Shown here piece by piece: positions 2,828 to 53,977 of a stretch of DNA of 64,000 nt. The translations under genes were made by a program, and so were the position numbers. Numbering within the stretch: position 1 is the stretch's first letter; every line of letters starts with the position of its first letter. Below the pieces are notes generated by a model. It searched no databases. It was not told where the DNA came from and saw only the letters and a list, made by a program, of their open reading frames with translations. The stretch lies in the IMG/VR virus record IMGVR_UViG_2703718819_000006; one strand, given 5' to 3'. The DNA is from a virus. Taxonomy: Duplodnaviria > Heunggongvirae > Uroviricota > Caudoviricetes.

Positions 2828-3531
2828 CAGCGCACCTCACCATCTTTATGGCTGGAGCTAACTTCCGCCATTAAATGTCTGACGTAATCGACAAGAGAGC
2901 CACCTGGTGGAATCTGGCATTCCTCAACTAACTGGAAGTAGATATCCGCTGCATTACGTGTATTGCTACCCGCACATATTCTTTCTTCCCGAAGTGCATG
3001 AAGCTCGTTGATCAAACGGTCACACTCTCCGTTACGCTGATCCACAACGGCCTCAAGCTCTGCGACGCGTTCACCTGGCGTCTTACCTTCTTTGCGTTGG
3101 ATGGTAACGACGAAATCGCCAATTGCAGGGGCGTTGTAATCCAGCTCAAGGTAGTTTTTGGCACCGCTGCGGACGAACTCACCCGCGAACATGGTGGCGA
3201 ACATCGCAGAGGCCACTTCGCCGTTGAAAAGTGACTCCAGATCTAACGGAGTCCCGGCATCAAGAGCCTCTTTTGCTGTATCCATTGCATCCATGAACCG
3301 ATCAAACTCATTGGCGCGCTTTTCCAGGTTTTTCCATTGCTCGCTCCAACGTTTGGCAACGAAGTCTATGAATGTTTTCGCGGATTCATCAAAATTCCCC
3401 TCAAACTTAACGATGCCTTTATCAATAATGATCTGGCCTACCGCATCCTCTGCATAACCTTTCAATGTAAACTTGAAAGGAAAATCAGAATGGCCTGTGA
3501 CGTTAAAATGCTCTAACTGGAGGTTGTTCAT
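2827..3531 (-). CDS. hypothetical protein
   Basis: ORF track; start carries the conserved AAAGGAAAAACACATG leader. Confidence 0.55.
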   Translation of the reverse strand: MNNLQLEHFNVTGHSDFPFKFTLKGYAEDAVGQIIIDKGIVKFEGNFDESAKTFIDFVAKRWSEQWKNLEKRANEFDRFMDAMDTAKEALDAGTPLDLESLFNGEVASAMFATMFAGEFVRSGAKNYLELDYNAPAIGDFVVTIQRKEGKTPGERVAELEAVVDQRNGECDRLINELHALREERICAGSNTRNAADIYFQLVEECQIPPGGSLVDYVRHLMAEVSSSHKDGEVR

Positions 3532-3592
3532 GTGTTTTTCTCTTATCGTTTAGTAACTACATTCTTACACAAATTAGGTAAGTATTTACCTA

Positions 3593-5278
3593 TCATTTAA
3601 CGCGTTTGAAAACGTATACGCTGACTGTGATCCCTGTGTCTTCAAACTCGTTGGTAAACGACTTCCCTCTGGCATAAACGTAATTATCCATCGTCATCCA
3701 GTCCAGTATTGGCGCAGTGCCCGGCAATACTGCTACAAGACGCCCGCCGACTTTCAGATGCCCCAGCGCAGCCAGCGTGTGCTCTCTATGACGACCAAGC
3801 GAGTACGGCGGGTTCATAACGATTTTGTCGAACTGATAACCTACGTTGTCCTCAGACCACTTTATGAAGTCGCAGCAAATCGTGTTCGTATACCCTTTTC
3901 CGCGCAGGATATCAGCGAAGAGAGGTGCGATTTCTATGCAGGTAACATCTTCCAGATCGGCGTTGATATAGGCCAGAAGATCCCCACGTCCGGCTTGAGG
4001 CTCCAGCAGCTTCTCACCAGGCTTCAATTCAGTGGCTCTGGCAACGTACTCAGCAATCAAGCGTGGGGTAGGGTAGAACTGGTGTGATTTTGTATCCGGT
4101 ATTAATCCGGTAGCCACAATCGTATTTAGCGTATGGCCGATCTCATACGGGAACTGCCAGTGCTTTTTCTCCTGCACGCCGCCAATGAAGCTCAGTGTGC
4201 GCTCAAGCTCTTCCACCTGCGACTTCTGGAGAGCTGAATCAGAGAAGTACCATACGCCTTTGTCTTTGCTTAATCGCCCGTCACGAAGCGCAGTGCGAAC
4301 CGGCACGGAGATCGTCTTCTGGATTAACCCGAACTGCTTTGGTGCCCGTGTTTTTGGCGCGGTGCGACATGGCGCGGGGATTGCAGCAGGCATACTGTAA
4401 GCCAGCACCTCATTCAACTTCCAGGCCACGTCAGGATGTATTTCAAAGTGAACGTTGCCGTTCTTGAACATCTTCACGCGCATTAGATTTCCATCGACGT
4501 TCATCCAGTCACCGGTCTGGCAGTCGTTTGCCCGATACGCAGCTGATAGCACCTCAGCAGTGCGGTTGATGGTAATAAATTCTTTGTGCGCGAAGAAATG
4601 AAGCAAGACACGCAGATCGTCGATATAGTCCTCTTTGCGATAGTTCACACTAACGCTGTCCCGCCAGAAATCAGAAATGCAGTCAGCGATTATCAGACGT
4701 TCGCTGAAACCGTTTGTCTTATTTGTCTTGTGCGCAGGACTCAGCGCCTTAAACAAGCCATACACGCGCTCAGAGAGATATTTGTGCCTGTCATTCAGCA
4801 AATTAAGCATCGTGGGTATGACCGTTTCTGCTTTGAACTCCGGTACACCAACGAACTCTTTAACCTTCATCTGGTAGCCGGTTCTGTCAGTTTTGATGAC
4901 TTCCTGTTTGCCCTCTATAAACTGCTCGCGCCACTCATCTCGACGGGAAGCTGGCATGATCAGCAAAACGTTAGTCATGTCCGTGACCTTCCTCCAGTAC
5001 TCGGCCCAAATATTCTGTTTCACCCATTCCAGATCGACTTTATCCAACCAACCTCGATTTAAACGCGAGCGATCTTCATCTGGTCGATGGTTTAGTCTCA
5101 GCAGGCGATTAATCATGTTGTGGCGTTCGTCGCCATAAACGAAGTCGTGTACCTGATACATGAAGGCGATCTCTTTCTCGCACTCGGCCACAATTTCGTG
5201 GATGACGTTCATTTCCTGCCGATAGTCGATAGCAGTGTTTGAGTTGGCATCGTCGATGATGGAAAGGGCTGTATTCAT
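3593..5278 (-). CDS. putative N6-adenine DNA methyltransferase (gamma-class core at C-terminus) with ~390 aa N-terminal domain of unknown function
   Basis: C-terminal motifs FYPTP (motif X), LEPQAGRGDLL (motif I), NPPY (motif IV) in that order; N-terminal part without recognisable motifs. Confidence 0.6.
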   Translation of the reverse strand: MNTALSIIDDANSNTAIDYRQEMNVIHEIVAECEKEIAFMYQVHDFVYGDERHNMINRLLRLNHRPDEDRSRLNRGWLDKVDLEWVKQNIWAEYWRKVTDMTNVLLIMPASRRDEWREQFIEGKQEVIKTDRTGYQMKVKEFVGVPEFKAETVIPTMLNLLNDRHKYLSERVYGLFKALSPAHKTNKTNGFSERLIIADCISDFWRDSVSVNYRKEDYIDDLRVLLHFFAHKEFITINRTAEVLSAAYRANDCQTGDWMNVDGNLMRVKMFKNGNVHFEIHPDVAWKLNEVLAYSMPAAIPAPCRTAPKTRAPKQFGLIQKTISVPVRTALRDGRLSKDKGVWYFSDSALQKSQVEELERTLSFIGGVQEKKHWQFPYEIGHTLNTIVATGLIPDTKSHQFYPTPRLIAEYVARATELKPGEKLLEPQAGRGDLLAYINADLEDVTCIEIAPLFADILRGKGYTNTICCDFIKWSEDNVGYQFDKIVMNPPYSLGRHREHTLAALGHLKVGGRLVAVLPGTAPILDWMTMDNYVYARGKSFTNEFEDTGITVSVYVFKRVK

Positions 5279-6335: not shown

Positions 6336-6905
6336 TCAATTAGAGCTTTGAAAGGCTTTGTGTGGCTGTGTTGCGAGGTTATGTCGATGGCTTAACTCAC
6401 GCATCATGTCTTCAAGCCGACTCTTTGTGTCGTCGAGTTGGTCGGCCATTGCTCCCAAAAGCTGACGAACGGCCATCGGATCATCGCTGTTTAGTGATGG
6501 CATTTTATAACCCGCCTGAGAAGACATAAGATTGAACGCAGACATCAACATCGTTAGAGAGGATTTAAGCCCAGCAATTTCACGATCTTTGCTGGCAATA
6601 ATCGCCTCACTCTTGTTAGTGTCATCAGTTCGTTGAGTCTCGCTCACCATATCCAAAGTCGCCTGCAACTTATCAGCGCGCTCTTTTTCAGCAAGATAAT
6701 GAACACCGAAATGATGTGCTAAAGCTACAACCTGAGTTGGCTCTTCAAAGGTGGACTCAAAATTAAGTGCTGTAACCACTCTCTCAAATATGGAAACGTC
6801 TTCTATTCCTCGAAGAATGGCTAACATTTTGACCAGTTCATTAGCATCCATTTCTTCGAATAAGGCGTTTTGTTCATCAGCTATCGCTTTGCATTTCTTG
6901 CACAT
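6336..6905 (-). CDS. hypothetical protein
   Basis: ORF track; conserved leader motif upstream. Confidence 0.5.
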   Translation of the reverse strand: MCKKCKAIADEQNALFEEMDANELVKMLAILRGIEDVSIFERVVTALNFESTFEEPTQVVALAHHFGVHYLAEKERADKLQATLDMVSETQRTDDTNKSEAIIASKDREIAGLKSSLTMLMSAFNLMSSQAGYKMPSLNSDDPMAVRQLLGAMADQLDDTKSRLEDMMRELSHRHNLATQPHKAFQSSN

Positions 6906-7202
6906 GTGTTTTTCCTAATGCTTAAACAAGTTGTTTTCTTATTGGCTTTATTGTGATGTGGCATAAAAGGGGAGCAAGCTAAACGTAAAGGTGCAAACTC
7001 TCTATTTCGGTCAACGAAACACAAGGGCCATTTGGCCCTTGTCATTAACACGTTGCTTTACGGACTAGCGGATAAGCGAAGTAGATCGCCAGACCAATGA
7101 GGACGCCATCAGAAATGACAGACATCATCTTTCCCGTAAAATCCACCAACACCGCCATCACCAGAAGAGCAATGACGGTCACAAGCCGGAATCTCTCAAG
7201 CA

Positions 7203-29160: not shown

Positions 29161-29586
29161 TCAATCATCTTGTTTAGGGAAAAACTGTTCAATAACTCTG
29201 TCAACGGCTGTGTCTATATGGAGTAGATGCCACACAACCATATCTTTGCTCCCCATGCCTTGTGTGAATATCACGTCATACTTACGCCATGCGCAGTGGA
29301 ACCAATATGCTGAGTCATCAATTGGTAAATCCTCTCCCGCCTCTTTGAAGTATTTCAGCAGCATTGCTTGCTCTGCCGTTGGCGTTGGACCTATTTCCTG
29401 AGCGTACATACGGATAAATCGCTGCCAGTCTGTCTCGTCGGTGGTCGGATCTGGTGGATTCATTTCGGCGATAGCGTTTCGTAGCTGATGCGCCCAATCA
29501 GGTTCAGGAAAGCCTTTTGATACTTCATCATCAATAACATCCAGAGCCGCGTTTGCGGCATCGTAGAGTTTCTTAATTGCTGCCAT
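29161..29586 (-). CDS. hypothetical protein
   Basis: ORF track. Confidence 0.5.
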   Translation of the reverse strand: MAAIKKLYDAANAALDVIDDEVSKGFPEPDWAHQLRNAIAEMNPPDPTTDETDWQRFIRMYAQEIGPTPTAEQAMLLKYFKEAGEDLPIDDSAYWFHCAWRKYDVIFTQGMGSKDMVVWHLLHIDTAVDRVIEQFFPKQDD

Positions 29587-29647
29587 GTTTACTTCTCCTT
29601 ATAAATAGGAAAATAATCACCTTTGAAAAAATAAAGCAAAGATATAT

Positions 29648-30037
29648 TCACTCCGATACAAGACGTTTATATGCTTCGATGTCTCGACGTGCTTCACCGA
29701 GTTTTCTTCTTAGGTCCATATTTTCTGATTCAAGTTTTTCAATGTTTTTTTGGTATCGGCCACGATGTTCTTCCCAGGCATCCTGATATGCCTTCATATA
29801 TGTCGTATTAGCCTTTCTTTTTGCCTGACGAACCGCGTGGTGATTTTCTACAAACCAGTCAGGGTCGTTAAATGCTGCTCTTGCGCATTTATACCAATAA
29901 TCGGTTGACTCTCTGTTTAACCAATGAATGGTGATAAATGGTAATCGAATAGACAGAATTTTTCGTTTGGAATCTCGCTCACCAAACATATGCCCTTTTT
30001 TTATCTTTAAACCGAACCCAGGTTGAATTAAAAGCAT
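29648..30037 (-). CDS. hypothetical protein (AT-rich island)
   Basis: ORF track; GAGG RBS. Confidence 0.45.
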   Translation of the reverse strand: MLLIQPGFGLKIKKGHMFGERDSKRKILSIRLPFITIHWLNRESTDYWYKCARAAFNDPDWFVENHHAVRQAKRKANTTYMKAYQDAWEEHRGRYQKNIEKLESENMDLRRKLGEARRDIEAYKRLVSE

Positions 30038-30057
30038 TGTCAGTACCTCAGATGCAT

Positions 30058-30798
30058 TTATGGCAGTAATTCTTTACCGCTTTCCATTTTGGTGATAGAG
30101 ACAGTAGGATCATCGTTAATGCATGATTCTGTGCCTAATGCTGCTAACCCTTTACGCATAACCGTGCCCGCAACATACGCCTCAATCTCCGCCTTTCCAG
30201 ATGAGACAATTTCATCCATTTGTTCCTGCATTAATTCGGTAGCAAAGCACAGATTTTCAGGAAGGTTAGCTACAGCAGATGCTAGTTTTCTATATAGTTC
30301 TTCAAGGTCACGTTTTCCAGCTCTTCCTTTTTTCACAAGTTCACCTAGCTCTGAAACTTGCTGATTAAGTCGATCAATCTCACTATTCGTAGCGGCCTTT
30401 ATTTGATCGTTGAATTTTTGCCGAATACTTTTTTGCTCGGCAATATCATGAACTCTAATTGAGTCTCCAATGGTTTTATATGAAATAGTGCATGGCACAC
30501 CTTCGCCCACTCCAAAACTGCTAACCATAGCAGCCCATTGTGCCTGGCTAAGTCTAATTTCAACTAAAGGCCGTCTATTGCAACTTCTTTGTGGGCGGGT
30601 TCGTTCATTGTCTAAGGACAGTTCCGCCTCGTAAACGCCTATTTCAATATAGTCTCTATGTTCCAGTTCTGAATCAAATAGGCGAATGCCAGTTGTGCTA
30701 ACACGGCTTGTTTTCACAAGACCGAACGCTGGATGTGTTTGAATTTTTTCCCCATGTTTATTAAGGGTCGTTTTTGGTTCTTCAATTTTTCTTTTCAC
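30058..30798 (-). CDS. hypothetical protein (AT-rich island), GTG start
   Basis: ORF track. Confidence 0.45.
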   Translation of the reverse strand: MKRKIEEPKTTLNKHGEKIQTHPAFGLVKTSRVSTTGIRLFDSELEHRDYIEIGVYEAELSLDNERTRPQRSCNRRPLVEIRLSQAQWAAMVSSFGVGEGVPCTISYKTIGDSIRVHDIAEQKSIRQKFNDQIKAATNSEIDRLNQQVSELGELVKKGRAGKRDLEELYRKLASAVANLPENLCFATELMQEQMDEIVSSGKAEIEAYVAGTVMRKGLAALGTESCINDDPTVSITKMESGKELLP

Positions 30799-30844
30799 CT
30801 TATTAACCTCTATGCTTCATGCGTAAAGCTAAATGACAATTTTT

Positions 30845-31669
30845 TTAATATCCGGCGTATTCGTATTCTTCATTTAGACCGTATTCTTGTGGAGTGATAC
30901 CAGGACAACATAACTCAAAGGCGAACTTGCGCCATTTGATTTTTTCTTCTGACGATTGTTTGTTATTCGCCGGTGCAATGTAGTCATATTCCCATTTGCC
31001 GTTGCGAAGTAAAATGAATCCGCAGTTATTGCCGAAGTCTTCGTCTGCATAACGTATTACAAACTCAAGGTGCGGGAACTTTCTAGCCATCGCTTGATAA
31101 ATTGGTTTTGGCATAGACCAGGCTGTTTCAAAGCGAATCACCAACTCACCACCAGTTGCGGCATGTCTTGCAAGACGTTTTTTATAGATTCGTTTTGCAT
31201 ATGCTCGAACGTGTGTATGGCGGAAATTATGGCCGTACTTAATACGTGTAGGGATACGTTTTACGGGCATTTCGATGTTGTAGGCATTCCATTTTGTTCC
31301 CCAATTAGCTCGCGACCAGTCAAACCATGAGTAATAGCCATAGCGACGATAATTCTCAAGCCGCATAAGAGCCTGCTCTTTGATTTTGCGAATTTCCTTG
31401 CGTGTCATTCCTGATTCACGCATAGCTAATTCGATCTGTTCTGGAGTCTTTAATTCACCGAACATGTGGTCGTAAACTGTTTCGCCCGCCATTGCAGAGG
31501 CCATGCGCCTGATATGATTGTTTTCTTCCATTTCTATACTTTTCGGACGTCTGCAAATGGTATTAAAGTCAATTAGACCTTTTTTGTTAGTTATGGCACG
31601 TATGAAATCTAAGCGTTGTTTATTTGTACCACCTATGACTCGGATTTCGTTTGTAATGTGGTTGGGCAT
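30845..31669 (-). CDS. hypothetical protein with conserved WFDWSRANWGTKWN motif (AT-rich island)
   Basis: ORF track. Confidence 0.5.
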   Translation of the reverse strand: MPNHITNEIRVIGGTNKQRLDFIRAITNKKGLIDFNTICRRPKSIEMEENNHIRRMASAMAGETVYDHMFGELKTPEQIELAMRESGMTRKEIRKIKEQALMRLENYRRYGYYSWFDWSRANWGTKWNAYNIEMPVKRIPTRIKYGHNFRHTHVRAYAKRIYKKRLARHAATGGELVIRFETAWSMPKPIYQAMARKFPHLEFVIRYADEDFGNNCGFILLRNGKWEYDYIAPANNKQSSEEKIKWRKFAFELCCPGITPQEYGLNEEYEYAGY

Positions 31670-31728
31670 AATTAACTTAACCTTTTAACAAATTGTTTTC
31701 TTGTGTGTGATAATAACGAGAATAAAAC

Positions 31729-31746
31729 GGCGTCCAACTGGACGCC
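31729..31746 (-). terminator. rho-independent terminator
   Basis: ggcgtcc aact ggacgcc hairpin followed by U-rich tract on minus strand. Confidence 0.6.
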
Positions 31747-31764: not shown

Positions 31765-32595
31765 TTATTTCACTGTAATGAAAGGAGTGTTAGCCCCTTG
31801 AGTCATGTACTGCGGTAACTGGCCATTCCATTTATTGATGGCTTCCAGCTCCATAACGTTCGGGTTTTGACGCAGAGCTTCACCGCGCAGACGAATGGCG
31901 TCGGCTTCTGCTTGCGCACGAGCACGGATAGCATCAGCTTCACCATTAGCCTGTTCACGTAGCATATTCGCCTCAGCTTTACGCTGTTCAACTTCCTGCT
32001 GACGTTGCAGAGTACGCTGGTTAGCCGTTACTTTGGCGTTGATAGATTCAATGACGGTTTTTGGGTAATCAGGCTTTCCAACCCATGACAGGCTCAGTAC
32101 CTCAATACCAACCGGAGACATCTCTTTCTGAATATCTTTCAGTGCGTTGTCCAGCAATTGCGCCTTACCACCGTCGATAAATGAGTCAGTGGTCATACGG
32201 CTGGCCAAACGGTTTAGAGAGTCGGCAATTTTCTGACGCAGATCTGATTCGGTGATATCGTCTACGCCTTTGCGATAGGTCTGGAACACCGTCGTTACCT
32301 TGTCACGATTAACCAGATACGCAACGCCAATTTTGTGACCAATAGCAGTACCGTCACTCATCTGGAATGTGAACGGCTCGTCGTAGGTCTTCATTTGTTT
32401 GAAGGTCGGGAATACGTAAAGTTCGGTGTTAAGACCTGTCCATTGGCGACCAACGCCAACCACTTCACCGATCCCTTTGTCTTCACCTAATTTGTTTACT
32501 TTGATGCCAACGTATCCAGGCTCCACGCGATCACAGCCAGTAAGACCCATTGTGCAAATAGCCGCCAGAGCAACTGCAAGTAAACCTTTCTTCAT
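31765..32595 (-). CDS. SPFH/band-7 domain lipoprotein
   Basis: Lipobox LTGC after signal peptide; SPFH-like core and Ala/Glu-rich coiled-coil C-terminus. Confidence 0.65.
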   Translation of the reverse strand: MKKGLLAVALAAICTMGLTGCDRVEPGYVGIKVNKLGEDKGIGEVVGVGRQWTGLNTELYVFPTFKQMKTYDEPFTFQMSDGTAIGHKIGVAYLVNRDKVTTVFQTYRKGVDDITESDLRQKIADSLNRLASRMTTDSFIDGGKAQLLDNALKDIQKEMSPVGIEVLSLSWVGKPDYPKTVIESINAKVTANQRTLQRQQEVEQRKAEANMLREQANGEADAIRARAQAEADAIRLRGEALRQNPNVMELEAINKWNGQLPQYMTQGANTPFITVK

Positions 32596-32598
32596 TAC

Positions 32599-32799
32599 TT
32601 ATTTCCCCTTTGCTTTGATTAATGAGTTGATAAACTTACGACCAGCAATAAGACCGATTACAGGAGCACCAAAACCAACGATAACTCCAAACATGACGGC
32701 TAAATCACTCTTGGTAGAAATCAGCGACGGAACCAGTAATCCGTAGATGAGAGCCACTGAAAGGCCTGTGGCTACTGCCAATAGATAGATTTTGATCAT
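32599..32799 (-). CDS. small membrane protein (2 TM), upstream partner of SPFH protein
   Basis: ORF track; hydrophobic. Confidence 0.45.
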   Translation of the reverse strand: MIKIYLLAVATGLSVALIYGLLVPSLISTKSDLAVMFGVIVGFGAPVIGLIAGRKFINSLIKAKGK

Positions 32800-32891: not shown

Positions 32892-35231
32892 TTACTCTTC
32901 TACTGACTCGGTGGGATTGTCTTTTGATCTCCGGTCGTCGATTGCCTGTAAAGCCGCAATGATTTCAGCTAGTGGCTTCTCCCGATACATCTCGACGATC
33001 TGTGATTTGGTGTATTTCTTGTCACCAATTTCTACTCGACCGCTGGCGTTCTTTGGCAGGTATCCTTCTTCCAGCATGTACTCGACGAGCGACTCGATAA
33101 CGTCGAGGCCACGAGTAGGATCGAAGTAGAATTTCCAGGTGCATTTGCCATACGGTGGTGCAACTTTGTTTTTGATGCACTCTGCGCCTACGTCCTGGCC
33201 GATCTTCTCTTTCCCATCCTTCATCACCGATGCACCGAGACGGATGCGCACAGAAGCGTAAAACTTCGGTGAATCGCCGCCTGGAGACGTAGTAGGGTCG
33301 CCAAACATTACACCGATTTTTGTGCGAACCTGATTCAAGAAGATGATGCAGGCGTTGTATTTGCGTGCCCACAAAGCCAGAGTAGGGAAGTTCGCACTCG
33401 TCGCACGAGCCAGCGCCGTATTGTCGTTCATGTTTAGCTGATCTTTGTCTTTGGCAGTGCCTTCAGCCATCTTTTCGAACTTCTCGGCTTTGGAGTTCGG
33501 AACCATAGACGCAAGTGAGTCAGCCACGATACAGATAGGTGCTGATTCAGGAATAAGCTCTTCATCACGTACCAATTTAAGAATTGTGCCGATCAACTCT
33601 ACAGAGTCTTCGAAGGTATCAGGCTGCTTGTATACCCACTGACCGTCATCCTCATCTGCATTCAAACCATTGGCTACAGCCAGGCCAACGTCAAAACTGT
33701 TTTCATGATCGAGGAATACCGCCAGACCATCTTGTTTTTGAGCGGAGATCATCGCTGCTGTTGCAAGGAATGTGTTGTGGCTGATAATCCCGTTAGACCA
33801 GAAAGAGTGTGTTTCCGGCATCGCTACGTCGAACGTTGGTGCTTCACCTTCCTCAATAGCCACGACTTCGTCGTAGAACAAGTTAGAGCCAATTACCGCT
33901 GCCAGTTGTGCAAACAGATGCTCGTTAAAACGATTCTTTCTGCCAATGAAGGAGACATAGATTTCTCGCAGTTTGTCTATTCCGACACGATCGCCGCGGC
34001 CAATAACGTGGTCTACCAGAGCGTAGTCTTCACGGGTGGTCTTGGTGAGCGACTCGTAGAGTGATTTCACTAAGCCGCTGATGTGCGGAACATAGCCTGA
34101 GTAAGTGCGGTCAAAACCAATGTCCCGTTTGGTTGCCACTGATAAACGTGCCGGAGATTCGAAACCAATCGTTGACAGAAAAAGGTCGTAATTAGAGCCA
34201 CTGAATGACAGCCGGTAATATGTATTTTCATAACCCGCGACGTGTTTTTCAGAGATAGTTGACGTAATCCCCAGATTCAGGAGCATGAGGCGAATTTGCT
34301 GTAGCAGCAGCCCACTCGCGCTCACAACCTCAATGCAGCGACCATCATTGACGTGGCATTCCAGCTCAAAGTAGCCGCGAAGGAATGCAATTTGAGCCTC
34401 GCTATTGGCGCGACGCACACTCAACGGAACCTGCTTGCCAGCAGCTTTCTCATACTCCAGACCATATTCTTTAAAAAGCAGCGAACGCACCTCTTTGCTA
34501 AACAGCACATGGTCTTCCGAGCCGTTATGTTTTCTCGTAACTGGCATCTTGTCTGATACCAGCGAAATGAGGCGGTAGTACTCATCCTTGATGAAAGGAT
34601 CTGTGTTAGAAAAATTCACTGAATTTTCAGAGGCCACGTATCCGTCAGCAATTAAATAGCCCATCAGTTTTGCGATATTGGCATCCAGGTGCTGATCGCC
34701 GAATTGATGTGTGCCAACCATTGAAGGAATCGTGTCGCCTACACTGATTTTTTCAGCATGTCGCCAGACGACATTACCTAAGTCGTCAACCACACGGATT
34801 GGGTGACGGAACGTAGCCTCGATATAACCGCCTGATGCCAGCTTAATACGCTTGAATTTGCGACGGTTGTTCCATGTCAGGTGTGAGGTCTTCTCTATCA
34901 CGCCATTTTCATTGATGAGTCCAACGTTATGCTCTACATCGCGAGTAGTGCATGTCGCTTTGTACCCTTCAATCTCAAACAACTCTTTCACTGTTACCAT
35001 TCCACGCTCCGTCAGCAGCATGGTGTCTGCGGTAACACATTTCCCCGCGCTTGGAGGACCGAATACTTCTACGATACGACCACATGGGAAACCGCCATCG
35101 TAACGACCGGAAATAGCTTTGTTTAACGGAGGAAAGCCTGTGTCAATCCAATGAGTTACTTTCTGAATTTCGTCGTTGCTACCGATTTTCTTTTTCAGAG
35201 CAAGTGCCAGTGCGGATTTTCCTTTTGCCAT
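32892..35231 (-). CDS. RecA-like recombinase interrupted by an intein with LAGLIDADG homing endonuclease domain
   Basis: Exteins give GPPSAGK|TFLATAAM Walker A and RecA-like FLDHENSFD, YKQPDTFEDSVEL; insert begins with Cys, ends SHN, contains LMGYLIADGYV. Confidence 0.8.
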   Translation of the reverse strand: MAKGKSALALALKKKIGSNDEIQKVTHWIDTGFPPLNKAISGRYDGGFPCGRIVEVFGPPSAGKCVTADTMLLTERGMVTVKELFEIEGYKATCTTRDVEHNVGLINENGVIEKTSHLTWNNRRKFKRIKLASGGYIEATFRHPIRVVDDLGNVVWRHAEKISVGDTIPSMVGTHQFGDQHLDANIAKLMGYLIADGYVASENSVNFSNTDPFIKDEYYRLISLVSDKMPVTRKHNGSEDHVLFSKEVRSLLFKEYGLEYEKAAGKQVPLSVRRANSEAQIAFLRGYFELECHVNDGRCIEVVSASGLLLQQIRLMLLNLGITSTISEKHVAGYENTYYRLSFSGSNYDLFLSTIGFESPARLSVATKRDIGFDRTYSGYVPHISGLVKSLYESLTKTTREDYALVDHVIGRGDRVGIDKLREIYVSFIGRKNRFNEHLFAQLAAVIGSNLFYDEVVAIEEGEAPTFDVAMPETHSFWSNGIISHNTFLATAAMISAQKQDGLAVFLDHENSFDVGLAVANGLNADEDDGQWVYKQPDTFEDSVELIGTILKLVRDEELIPESAPICIVADSLASMVPNSKAEKFEKMAEGTAKDKDQLNMNDNTALARATSANFPTLALWARKYNACIIFLNQVRTKIGVMFGDPTTSPGGDSPKFYASVRIRLGASVMKDGKEKIGQDVGAECIKNKVAPPYGKCTWKFYFDPTRGLDVIESLVEYMLEEGYLPKNASGRVEIGDKKYTKSQIVEMYREKPLAEIIAALQAIDDRRSKDNPTESVEE
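33774..35039 (-). other. intein (~422 aa) within RecA-like gene
   Basis: Cys1 after GPPSAGK, LAGLIDADG motif, C-terminal HN followed by Thr+1. Confidence 0.75.
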
Positions 35232-49608: not shown

Positions 49609-49695
49609 TGGCGGAGAGTAATGGAATCGAACCATCATCGCTTGCGCAATGGGACGGTTTTCAAGACCGCTTGAGCACCATGCTCCCTACTCTCC
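49609..49695 (-). tRNA. tRNA-Ser (anticodon TGA), type II with long variable arm
   Basis: Hand-folded: acceptor GGAGAGT/ACTCTCC, anticodon loop CTTGAAA, T-loop GGTTCGATTCC, encoded GCCA 3' end. Confidence 0.7.
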
Positions 49696-50341
49696 AATTG
49701 TTGTGGTGCCGGGTGCCTCCCGGTGTCCTTTGGCTGGTTATCCACCGTGAACGGGGCCACAGATGTCATAAGATGAGCAATATAACCATTTCCCCGCGTG
49801 CGCTTAGCCGCATTCACCACAACGGAAAGAGCATTCACATCTCGCGTGCCGCCACGAATAGCAACTCAGAGAGTCGAACTCTGAAAATGCTCTTACCTGT
49901 TGTGTGCTGTGTCACTCCCTCCGCTATTACCTGGCTTTGCCTCGACCTTTTAGGTTGCGTCCGATGATAAACAGGGCTGTCGGAAATTTGTCTGTGGCAC
50001 AGCGATAAGAGAACTCGATGCATTTAAGCCAAGCCCCATATGGGAAGTTCTCTTATCTGTTGTGCGCTCCGTTTCGTGGAGCTAACGGCGGGTGAACAGG
50101 CCGCACCAGGTTGGACATATTTCAGCGTTATGCTGTTGCAAGAGAGCCAAATTGTGATGGTCGGTGCTGAACTCCGACACAGGGTTGTAGCAAGCCCCGC
50201 AAAGCGCGCACTACTGTAGTTACGGCACATCAGCCTGTGCATTCATCACAATGTTGAGAACACTGGTTGTCACGCGGCAACGCAACATTTATTCATAAAT
50301 TGGGATATGAACCCGTTACGCCAATGTTCTCAATATTATGT

Positions 50342-50417
50342 TGGTGCCGGTTAACGGACTTGAACCGCTGGCCATTCGCTTACAAAGCGACTGCTCTACC
50401 AACTGAGCTAAACCGGC
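50342..50417 (-). tRNA. tRNA-Thr (anticodon TGT)
   Basis: Hand-folded: acceptor GCCGGTT/AACCGGC, D-arm GCTCAGTTGGTAGAGC, anticodon loop TTTGTAA, encoded CCA. Confidence 0.7.
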
Positions 50418-50421
50418 AATT

Positions 50422-50508
50422 TGGTGGGGAGTGATGGAGTCGAACCACCCGAGTCGCAATGACGGTAGATTTACAGTCTACACCGCTACCTCTACGGACT
50501 AACTCCCC
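50422..50508 (-). tRNA. tRNA-Tyr (anticodon GTA), type II
   Basis: Anticodon arm GTAGA-CTGTAAA-TCTAC, T-loop GGTTCGACTCC, acceptor GGGGAGT/ACTCCCC, encoded CCA. Confidence 0.75.
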
Positions 50509-50513
50509 TAAAT

Positions 50514-50588
50514 TGGCGATGGTGGGTGGATTCGAACCACCGACCAGTTGGTTAACAGCCAACTGCTCTACCGCTGAGCTACACCATC
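50514..50588 (-). tRNA. tRNA-Asn (anticodon GTT)
   Basis: Anticodon arm GTTGG-CTGTTAA-CCAAC, T-loop GGTTCGAATCC, acceptor GATGGTG/CACCATC. Confidence 0.75.
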
Positions 50589-52179: not shown

Positions 52180-53498
52180 TCTTTATCTCCGATTCGATCT
52201 TCTGTATCGCGTAAGCAACGCGGCCATTTGAGTCGGGGGTGGCGTAAGCTGCCATCCGGTGTTTTCTCGTGACAATGAACCTCAACAATACGACCACGGT
52301 ACTTCTCTTTGTTGTTCCAGATCTCGTCCAGATATTTATGCTTAATACCGCTCGCACGAACGATGACGCCGTTTTCAAGACGAATAACAATTTTTCCAAG
52401 TGTGTTGGCAAAACCAGAGTCCGGGTCGCCCGGCTCAAAGTCGATAATTTCACCATCTTCTGAATCTTCGTCTTTTAACTTCCACCAGCTGCGGGTACGT
52501 TTAAACTCGTAAACAGAGTTCGGATCTTTGCCCATCTCCCCTTCTTCGTTATCGTCCAGGCGTTTCATGAAGCGTTCGATGAAGTCTTCGTGGCTATGGA
52601 TGATATAGAACGGATGCAGGTGAATGTCTTGTGTGTAGCCTTCACTGCGATCGTTTTTGAACAACGCCACCAGCATAGCCAGGCGCTCTTTCAGCTTCAT
52701 ACCTGTCTTTGCATACTCTTTGGATTTAGCCTGTGCTCGCCATTCCGGTAGGAAGAAGTCAAAAACATGATAAATAGCGCCAATTGCCTGCACGTTCTTT
52801 TTGCGCAATGCAGATACGGACTGGTTAAATGAACCGGCAGTTCCTTCACCATCGAAGAAGATGTGTTTGTGGCCTGAAAGTTTGCCTAATTCGAGCATGG
52901 CTGGCTTTAGGTGATCGAGAGACGTGATTGGATTACCAGTACGAGAAAGGAAGTTAACCTCTTCCTCGTCAACAATAACCTCGCAAATTACTCGCAAACC
53001 ATCGAGCTTAAGACTGCCAATCATCGGCCATTTTGCTTTAGGATTTGGCTTGAAGGGGTATTTGTCGCCTTTTTCTTTATACGGTGACGCCAGCTGCACC
53101 TCGAATTTCGGAATGGGATTTTCAAAAACCTTGTTGCATAGGCTAATCCCAACGCCAGCTTTCGGGTCTTTTAAGAGGAAACGACGGAACACGTCCTGCC
53201 CATCGGCGCACATTGACGCCACGATAGACTCAACAGCTGCTATTGCTGCGTTCCCCGTTAGCTCGCGAGAGGCCAGCTTATTCAGTACATCAATGGCTTT
53301 TTCGTCACTTGGGATGGACTCACTAAGCGGCTCTGCCACTTTGTATTTCTTTACCCCAAAACGGATGAAAGGGTTGAGCATCAATGAAACCATGCTTTGT
53401 TCAAAGTCATCCATGTTGGCCAATGCCTCTTTTTTTGCATTGGTTCCCATAGCTTTCATTTCGTCCAGCTTATGCTTAAGTGCGATCAACTTTTTCAT
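52176..53498 (-). CDS. ATP-dependent DNA ligase
   Basis: Motif I KLDGLR (KxDG), motif III IFFDGE. Confidence 0.8.
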   Translation of the reverse strand: MKKLIALKHKLDEMKAMGTNAKKEALANMDDFEQSMVSLMLNPFIRFGVKKYKVAEPLSESIPSDEKAIDVLNKLASRELTGNAAIAAVESIVASMCADGQDVFRRFLLKDPKAGVGISLCNKVFENPIPKFEVQLASPYKEKGDKYPFKPNPKAKWPMIGSLKLDGLRVICEVIVDEEEVNFLSRTGNPITSLDHLKPAMLELGKLSGHKHIFFDGEGTAGSFNQSVSALRKKNVQAIGAIYHVFDFFLPEWRAQAKSKEYAKTGMKLKERLAMLVALFKNDRSEGYTQDIHLHPFYIIHSHEDFIERFMKRLDDNEEGEMGKDPNSVYEFKRTRSWWKLKDEDSEDGEIIDFEPGDPDSGFANTLGKIVIRLENGVIVRASGIKHKYLDEIWNNKEKYRGRIVEVHCHEKTPDGSLRHPRLKWPRCLRDTEDRIGDKE

Positions 53499-53977
53499 TG
53501 TTGTTTTGCCTCCATATGTTGATCGATTTGCTCATGTGTTTTTTTTGTTGTTTCTTCAAGCAACGCCGCATACACGTCAGTGATCGCTGTTTGTGATGTG
53601 GCGCTCTTCTTAACCATGCTATTAATCGTTACACTGTCACGTTTTCGTTTTAAAGTTCTGGCTTGTTTATTCCGTTCTTCAACCTCCTTAATGAGCGCGG
53701 TCATATCTTCGAAATACAGAGATTCTCCTTTACGAATCTCTTCAACCATCATTTTTAACGCCTTGCATTTGCCTGCTTTGATAGCGGTTGCGCACGACTG
53801 GAATGAAGTTCGAGGAAGACGGTTTTCTTTGAAGGCAAGAATGGTGTGCTGGCAAACGGAGTAGCTGCAATATGCCGACTCACCGTTTATCTTTACTTCC
53901 TCACAACGAAGTGAATAACCATTATTTCCTGAAATAGAGGGGATTTTTGACAAATCAGCTTTCACAACTACCGCCAT
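53495..53977 (-). CDS. hypothetical protein
   Basis: ORF track. Confidence 0.5.
   Translation of the reverse strand: MAVVVKADLSKIPSISGNNGYSLRCEEVKINGESAYCSYSVCQHTILAFKENRLPRTSFQSCATAIKAGKCKALKMMVEEIRKGESLYFEDMTALIKEVEERNKQARTLKRKRDSVTINSMVKKSATSQTAITDVYAALLEETTKKTHEQIDQHMEAKQQ

Follow-up and report, generated by a model that had tools for sequence, protein, structure and literature searches.

Phage 'moron' loci and other accessory hot spots, like the anti-defence islands of plasmid leading regions and T5-type phages, consist of small co-oriented genes of foreign composition, and classical morons carry their own promoter and terminator. The nin region of lambdoid phages, home of NinB/Orf and NinG/Rap, holds a family of small open reading frames (ORFs) represented by gp55 of HK630, which lies between ninE and ninF, by H0040 of VT1-Sakai and by an ORF of CP-933V; in P22, the ninE-ninF slot is filled by NinX. 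The Api92/DUF1281 family is represented in Pfam by PF18406 (DUF1281_C), described there as a 'ferredoxin-like domain in Api92-like protein'. In a survey of clinical isolates, SSU5-type phage-plasmids have been reported to carry assorted defence systems and, in 16% of those from Escherichia and 22% of those from Shigella, mostly S. sonnei, the Rad anti-retron gene (bioRxiv 10.1101/2025.09.12.675607); Rad itself is the 189-aa ORF75 of phage SP15 (bioRxiv 10.1101/2023.03.15.532788). Here, we analyse a block of three genes, encoding proteins of 129, 246 and 274 aa, in a 64,000-nucleotide stretch of viral DNA (IMG/VR record IMGVR_UViG_2703718819_000006, hereafter the window) that belongs to an SSU5/pHCM2-type phage-plasmid. 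The block is optional mosaic cargo and, as accessory islands go, fairly ordinary, its hypothetical proteins belonging to widespread phage and plasmid families; our best, still tentative, explanation is that its genes are expressed early and serve the element itself.

The window is 97-99.8% identical to its matches among non-mobilizable plasmids of ~105-125 kb from E. coli, Shigella sonnei and E. albertii, including p09EL50 from E. coli O104:H4, as well as GenBank records named as phages (CMS-2020a, PhiR41_1 and Cyrano). With a query including the flanks of the block, 190 plasmid records were matched, and the block itself is present in 25 of them; the rest align over ~43% of the query, in two pieces. 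With the block as the only query, we recovered the same 25 plasmid records in full, plus four lambdoid prophage-plasmids matching the 129-aa ORF alone. In the set of complete E. coli genomes, the flanks are matched at an identity of at least 95% by ~203 records, 15 of which contain the block. The length difference between occupied and empty matches is 2,087 bp. In the empty site of CP027358, the gene of an SPFH/Band 7 lipoprotein is followed by 91 bp and then by the DUF7238 gene, the SPFH protein having an identical accession in occupied and empty plasmids. The isolated phages Cyrano and PhiR41_1 also correspond to the empty site and, because they are devoid of the block, the cassette would be dispensable for the phage life cycle. 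An earlier note, made from the letters of the window alone, had described three ORFs of laterally acquired cargo between positions 29600 and 31700. The three ORFs exist exactly as described, the same coding sequences being annotated by RefSeq in p09EL50; the limits that we obtained from the empty site, ~29,591 and 31,682, lie within 20 bp of those proposed; and the lateral acquisition agrees with the presence of the block in a minority of both the plasmid and the E. coli records, since it is optional among relatives rather than fixed in all of them with matches to replication-accessory families.

The insertion point is exact. It lies between the leader that follows the terminator of the SPFH gene and the start codon of the DUF7238 gene (Table 1), the cassette starting just upstream of the 274-aa start codon, where the empty site enters the DUF7238 start codon. 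The same leader precedes the DUF7238 gene at the empty site and the 274-aa gene at the occupied site. No direct or inverted repeats span the two boundaries, and no integrase, transposase or recombinase is encoded by the three cassette ORFs, so that the cassette displays neither the recombinase gene nor the terminal repeats of a mobile island. The three genes are co-oriented, and their composition is distinct from that of the surrounding DNA. The guanine-plus-cytosine (GC) content of the block (positions 29590-31687) is 0.404 versus 0.457 window-wide, and this is the lowest-GC 2.1-kb stretch in the window (sliding windows: fraction 0.0008 as low, z = -2.6). GC at third codon positions (GC3) is also reduced, from 0.44-0.55 in the flanking genes to 0.30-0.40 in the cassette genes. 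The drop in composition announced by the earlier note is thus recovered in both the GC and the codon-position scans, but at ~5 points the word 'markedly' slightly overstated it.

The 129-aa gene is related to ORFs of lambdoid phages. Its product matches phrog_1511 over the full length (residues 1-128, E 2.7e-76), and at the DNA level the ORF is 82% identical to that of more than 30 Stx-/lambda-like phages, with proteins 75-83% identical; the homologue in HK630 is the gp55 mentioned above. The lambdoid nin ORFs belong to the same family but differ in their setting, as the 129-aa gene lies outside any nin operon, on a phage-plasmid and beside unrelated genes. The likeness extends to NinX: in sibling plasmids, from E. 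albertii and some E. coli, a fourth gene, NinX/DUF2591, is present between the 129-aa and DUF7238 genes. Other variants of the slot were observed in more distant elements. The Salmonella plasmid AnCo3 has a 274-like gene (66% identity), a 246-like gene (62%) and DUF2591, without the 129-aa gene; a Klebsiella phage-plasmid has a 246-like gene between two other small genes, without a DUF1281 gene; and plasmids of Moellerella and Pectobacterium have both larger genes in reversed order, on the opposite side of the SPFH gene. Synonymous divergence (dS) from the E. albertii copy varies among the cassette genes (0.018, 0.090 and 0.139), and this gene-by-gene difference indicates that recombination has occurred inside the cassette. 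Given the differing origins and divergence of its three genes, the cassette was assembled by phage-type mosaic recombination, with the 129-aa gene derived from the ninE-ninF slot of lambdoid phages.

Two further observations concern this slot. Two alternative lambdoid ninE-ninF genes, the 129-aa nin ORF and NinX/DUF2591 (positions 3480-3896 of locus L003, E. albertii pEA26_1, and 6632-7003 of locus L005, Salmonella AnCo3), have moved into the same phage-plasmid hot spot. In E. coli strain 22919 (NZ_JBYMEV010000003.1, 68545-73724), the locus is occupied and matches in three pieces, with an IS1-family transposase annotated beneath.

Compared with the E. albertii copy, the 246-aa gene displays 14 synonymous and 2 non-synonymous differences, giving a ratio of non-synonymous to synonymous divergence (dN/dS) of 0.04; the 129-aa gene displays 10 and 1, respectively (dN/dS 0.02), and the 274-aa gene 3 of each. 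Over the three genes, dN/dS ranges from 0.02 to 0.26, corresponding to purifying selection. Together with motifs that are conserved down to 27% identity, these values argue that the cassette genes are real.

The 274-aa protein matches PF18406 over residues 171-242 (57.8 bits for a cut-off of 22.8, E 1.1e-15), and also phrog_12644. It has 850 homologous clusters, some of which are named 'YubB ferredoxin-like domain-containing' or 'DUF1281 family ferredoxin-like fold protein', the latter being the name given by the Prokaryotic Genome Annotation Pipeline to its identical and near-identical copies. The predicted structure has the fold of the Api92 crystal structure (PDB 2IJR), over which 137 residues superpose at 15% identity, with no other meaningful match; beyond Api92, only generic ferredoxin folds were recovered. 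At the sequence level, neither phmmer nor a profile of 51 sequences of the subfamily found 2IJR at E<=1, and no N-terminal DUF1281 Pfam domain was detected at E<=0.1. As the subfamily profile misses 2IJR, the 274-aa protein is placed on a divergent branch of the DUF1281/Api92-like family, from which it differs by a helical insertion and its own set of invariant residues. Note that membership in this family says nothing about the mechanism of the protein. The earlier note had called the three proteins unknown, which is partly outdated, the 274-aa protein being a recognised DUF1281 member and the 129-aa protein a known lambdoid nin-region ORF.

The motif that had looked conserved in the 274-aa protein, WFDWSRANWGTKWN, is indeed so: in the alignment of 51 homologues, down to 27% identity, T125, K126, W127 and N128 (TKWN) show no variation, and conservation reaches at least 90% at W115, W123 and G124. 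The other invariant positions in these 51 sequences are P2, N3, P42, Y130, T182-A183-W184, A208-D209-E210-D211, G213, N215 and G217, with His4, Thr6 and Asn7 nearly invariant. The subfamily is thereby marked by the blocks MPNH..., WGTKWN, T-K-W-N-x-Y (125-130), TAW and ADEDxGxNxG (208-217). This invariant set suggests a candidate catalytic or ligand-binding site and, because its residues are polar and located at strand ends (Pro-Asn-His, WGTKWN, TAW and ADEDxGxNxG), the DUF1281 protein resembles an enzyme or a protein that binds a specific ligand. DUF1281 relatives are found in prophage regions near integrases and repressors, as well as in large phages infecting Vibrio, Variovorax and Microbacterium; the only informative fusion joins one such relative to LPD28, a polyvalent-protein domain. 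On the F plasmid, a DUF1281_C-like ORF (53,322-53,777) occupies the yubB position between sopB and oriT, and its neighbours form a block with methylase, antirestriction, ssb and psiB genes.

The 246-aa protein matches phrog_6452 and has no match in Pfam, NCBIfam or PADLOC. An exhaustive profile search of its family yielded 4,103 sequences at E<=1e-3, each representing a 50%-identity cluster, and 2,410 of them at E<=1e-30. Almost all members are 220-250 aa long, and the longer ones contain no Pfam or other recognisable extra domain. The structural model (predicted local distance difference test score of 83) combines a beta domain at the N-terminus with a long helical hairpin at the C-terminus, and the conserved motifs, THPAFG, LFDSxxxH and AQWAxxVSSxGxGxGVPCT, are all in the beta domain. 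The family is present in 126 phage records, including phiR1-37, phiTE, CR3/CR9, phiCbK-like Caulobacter phages and Microbacterium phages; those that are large or jumbo phages (phiR1-37, phiTE, phiCbK) we take to be virulent. In the three phage loci inspected (MementoMori, phiTE and phiCbK), the 246-like gene lies within a long run of small hypothetical genes, which we take to be early-gene arrays. Among plasmids, 353 have a member of the family, including 276 large conjugative ones, and of these the one inspected is typed IncHI1A. In this E. coli plasmid (NZ_LT795503; locus L014, 6983-7681), the homologue is 41% identical and surrounded by hypothetical genes, with a RepB-family initiator a few kb away; its neighbours have no Pfam matches.

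The 274-like and 246-like genes are adjacent in phage-plasmids of E. coli, Salmonella, Moellerella and Pectobacterium, and this adjacency persists although identities are 30-45%, the two genes have swapped places and the pair is positioned differently with respect to the SPFH gene. Its conservation in four diverged phage-plasmid lineages hints at cooperation, and the 246-aa protein may be a partner of the DUF1281 protein within this plasmid lineage. An obligatory two-gene system was considered and rejected as a strict claim, each family being found alone in many contexts.

Searches for known defence and anti-defence functions gave no assignment. The 246- and 274-aa proteins have no hits in PADLOC-DB 2.0, and the 129-aa protein gave a single 12.8-bit match of its coiled-coil tail to LmuB, at chance level. 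NCBIfam provides no name for the three proteins, and searches of Pfam, NCBIfam and the PDB recovered no characterised anti-defence family (Ard, Ocr, Acr, Tad, Gad and others); for both larger proteins, sequence and profile searches of the PDB returned coiled-coil noise or nothing. The defence or anti-defence function put forward in the earlier note is therefore not demonstrated. We also considered whether the cassette could be Rad, because the reported distribution of this gene resembles that of the cassette. This was rejected: the best tblastn match of Rad in the window has an E-value of 1.6, and the 274- and 246-aa profiles do not match Rad. A Rad homologue (TOPRIM domain, 42% identity) is nevertheless encoded on cassette-carrying sibling plasmids, ~29-33 kb from the cassette. 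Rad and the cassette thus share the same phage-plasmid lineage, but Rad is a different gene, at an unlinked locus and without similarity. The homologue is located at 79332-79823 in NZ_CP045933 and at 66004-66495 in NZ_CP022085.2, which by coordinate arithmetic corresponds to ~2 kb before the start of the window.

The three genes form an optional cargo cassette at a hot spot of recombination in this SSU5/pHCM2-type phage-plasmid, and we propose that their products would benefit the element as its DNA comes into a cell or takes control of it, by counter-defence, host takeover or establishment, and would neither protect the host nor serve as replication proteins. Taken as a whole, optional mosaic cargo with early-expressed, element-serving genes is an explanation to which we give slightly less than even confidence; the functional part, counter-defence, takeover or establishment, comes from context and is somewhat less secure. 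Both larger families are common to large, presumably virulent phages, temperate phages, phage-plasmids and conjugative plasmids, and as all such elements face the task of establishing their DNA on entry into a hostile cell, these functions are favoured, whereas genes that protect a lysogen are unexpected in virulent phages, which argues against host defence. The positions in gene arrays, the position on the F plasmid and the LPD28 fusion point in the same direction, and so does the absence of a fitting defence model in PADLOC. The context thus leans, indirectly, to element-serving functions such as counter-defence or takeover, and away from host defence. Like moron loci and anti-defence islands, the cassette is variable among close relatives and set between core genes, and its homologues occur in presumed early phage arrays and in the antirestriction/ssb/psiB block of F; unlike them, none of its genes matches a characterised anti-defence protein and, at variance with classical morons, neither a promoter nor a terminator of its own was found.

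Several points weigh against this proposal. The pairing is not obligatory, with 246-like genes alone in Klebsiella phage-plasmids, IncHI plasmids and phage contigs, and DUF1281 genes alone in prophages, and the adjacency of the two in a shared hot spot could be a coincidence. The genes neighbouring the homologues in IncHI plasmids, Klebsiella, Pectobacterium and prophage loci gave no informative Pfam matches; the literature on DUF1281, Api92, YubB, the accessions, the PHROG identifiers and the motifs yielded nothing functional; and we found no experiment or annotated homologue that assigns a function to any of the three proteins. With regard to predicted expression, the scan of the cassette strand found no sigma-70 consensus and no promoter, and a terminator sits just upstream of the cassette. 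The cassette would rather be a promoter-less insert transcribed together with the resident DUF7238 operon, via read-through or a weak promoter. Lastly, the setting among recombination and nin-type genes fits a role in DNA metabolism equally well.

In that role, which we regard as unlikely, the cassette products would be accessory to replication and recombination, as DNA-metabolism helpers (single-stranded DNA-binding, annealing or end-protecting) for the RecA-like, exonuclease and Rep module, in parallel to the lambdoid nin region with its NinB/Orf and NinG/Rap. The cassette does have the RecA-like recombinase and 5'-3' exonuclease genes on one side and the RepB-family initiator on the other, its 129-aa ORF originates in the nin region, near NinB and NinG, and the IncHI 246-like gene is a few kb from a RepB-family initiator. 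However, ~90% of the sibling plasmids replicate and recombine without the cassette, the fold matches are limited to Api92 and generic ferredoxin folds, and no similarity to replication or recombination families was found in Pfam, NCBIfam, PHROGs or the PDB. About equally improbable is that the three genes are independent hitch-hikers, sharing nothing more than the insertion hot spot and each having an unrelated or marginal role. This is consistent with the occurrence of each family without the others in most contexts, with a third slot that is interchangeable between the 129-aa ORF, NinX or both, and with the different dS of the three genes, but it does not account for the 274-like/246-like adjacency, kept in four diverged phage-plasmid lineages through rearrangement, nor for the purifying selection on all three genes. 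Least likely among these alternatives is a defence, superinfection-exclusion or abortive-infection module protecting the lysogen from competing phages, which would be in keeping with the defence genes often held by variable AT-rich hot-spot cargo and with the defence systems reported for SSU5-type phage-plasmids, but which conflicts with the lack of a meaningful PADLOC match, with the absence of nuclease, ATPase, toxin or sensor domains, and with the abundance of the larger families in conjugative plasmids and in large and jumbo phages, presumably virulent, where a lysogen-protecting gene would be unusual.

The element-serving proposal can be stated in a more specific form, which is speculative and in our view rather improbable: the DUF1281 protein, by itself or together with the 246-aa protein, would be a counter-defence or establishment factor of an uncharacterised kind, common to phages both temperate and virulent, to phage-plasmids and to conjugative plasmids. 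The DUF1281 protein would be an enzyme, with a catalytic centre made of its invariant N-terminal proline, the invariant lysine of WGTKWN and the acidic cluster of ADED; the proline would be exposed once the methionine is removed, as in tautomerase-type enzymes. If this were true, the early proteins of phages would include a major family that has escaped recognition, the 246-aa one, with ~4,100 clusters and no Pfam model. Clinical E. coli, Shigella sonnei and Salmonella commonly harbour phage-plasmids of this type, whose variable cargo is the expected home of host-range and persistence traits. The cassette offers a clean natural presence/absence pair, with near-identical plasmids and inducible phages with and without the block, which could give a first function to two large orphan families, the DUF1281/YubB-like one and the unnamed 246-aa one, both of which are also encoded by F-type and IncHI resistance plasmids and by large and jumbo phages.

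Table 1. Coordinates in the window of the cassette, its genes and the adjoining resident features
Feature	Position	Strand	Basis and remarks
DUF7238 gene, left flank	29161..29586	-	Pfam PF23885, E 6e-38; adjoins the SPFH gene at the empty site; core to the lineage
Variable cargo cassette, ~2,092 bp	29591..31682	.	Alignment of occupied and empty sites
129-aa lambdoid nin-region ORF, C-terminal coiled coil	29648..30037	-	
246-aa protein, large unnamed phage/plasmid family	30058..30798	-	GTG start
274-aa DUF1281/Api92-fold ('YubB-like') protein, first cassette gene	30845..31669	-	
WFDWSRANWGTKWN motif, residues 115-128 of the 274-aa protein	31286..31327	-	Alignment of 51 homologues
Resident leader, ~36 nt	31683..31718	-	Alignment; common to occupied and empty sites
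Intrinsic terminator 3' of the SPFH gene	31719..31746	-	Terminator scan: 7-bp GC-rich stem + GTTTTATTCT
SPFH/Band 7 lipoprotein gene, right flank	31765..32595	-	Pfam PF01145, E 2.6e-30; core to the lineage

The genes around the cassette are all on the minus strand and read leftward, in the order RecA-like recombinase (with a putative intein here), small membrane protein, SPFH/Band 7 lipoprotein, the three cassette genes, DUF7238 and small ORFs, after which comes the RepB-family initiator, on the plus strand. The locus is a leftward operon running from the RecA-like recombinase and 5'-3' exonuclease genes toward the replication initiator. The terminator of the SPFH gene is kept in the aligned occupied, empty and NinX-variant sites. 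Upstream of this gene, positions 32599-32799 of the minus strand encode a predicted membrane protein of 66 aa, directly followed by the SPFH gene; the pair is kept across the plasmid lineage and looks like an NfeD-like/SPFH membrane pair, each of its genes having its own GC-rich terminator of similar sequence (GGCGTCC...GGACGCC). The RecA-like recombinase ORF (32892-35231, minus strand) is 779 aa long here versus 357 aa in p09EL50 and E. albertii pEA26_1, and carries a LAGLIDADG homing endonuclease annotation in an equivalent plasmid. This suggests an intein containing a homing endonuclease, which some siblings have and others lack, irrespective of the cassette.

With regard to RNA genes, an Rfam scan of the 27.5-33 kb interval found no credible RNA. 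Further along the window, a cluster of four transfer RNA (tRNA) genes was observed on the minus strand at 49609-50588, comprising Ser-TGA, Thr-TGT, Tyr-GTA and Asn-GTT; the effector of retron Ec78, which cleaves tRNA, is reportedly cancelled by a phage tRNA-Tyr (bioRxiv 10.1101/2023.03.15.532788).

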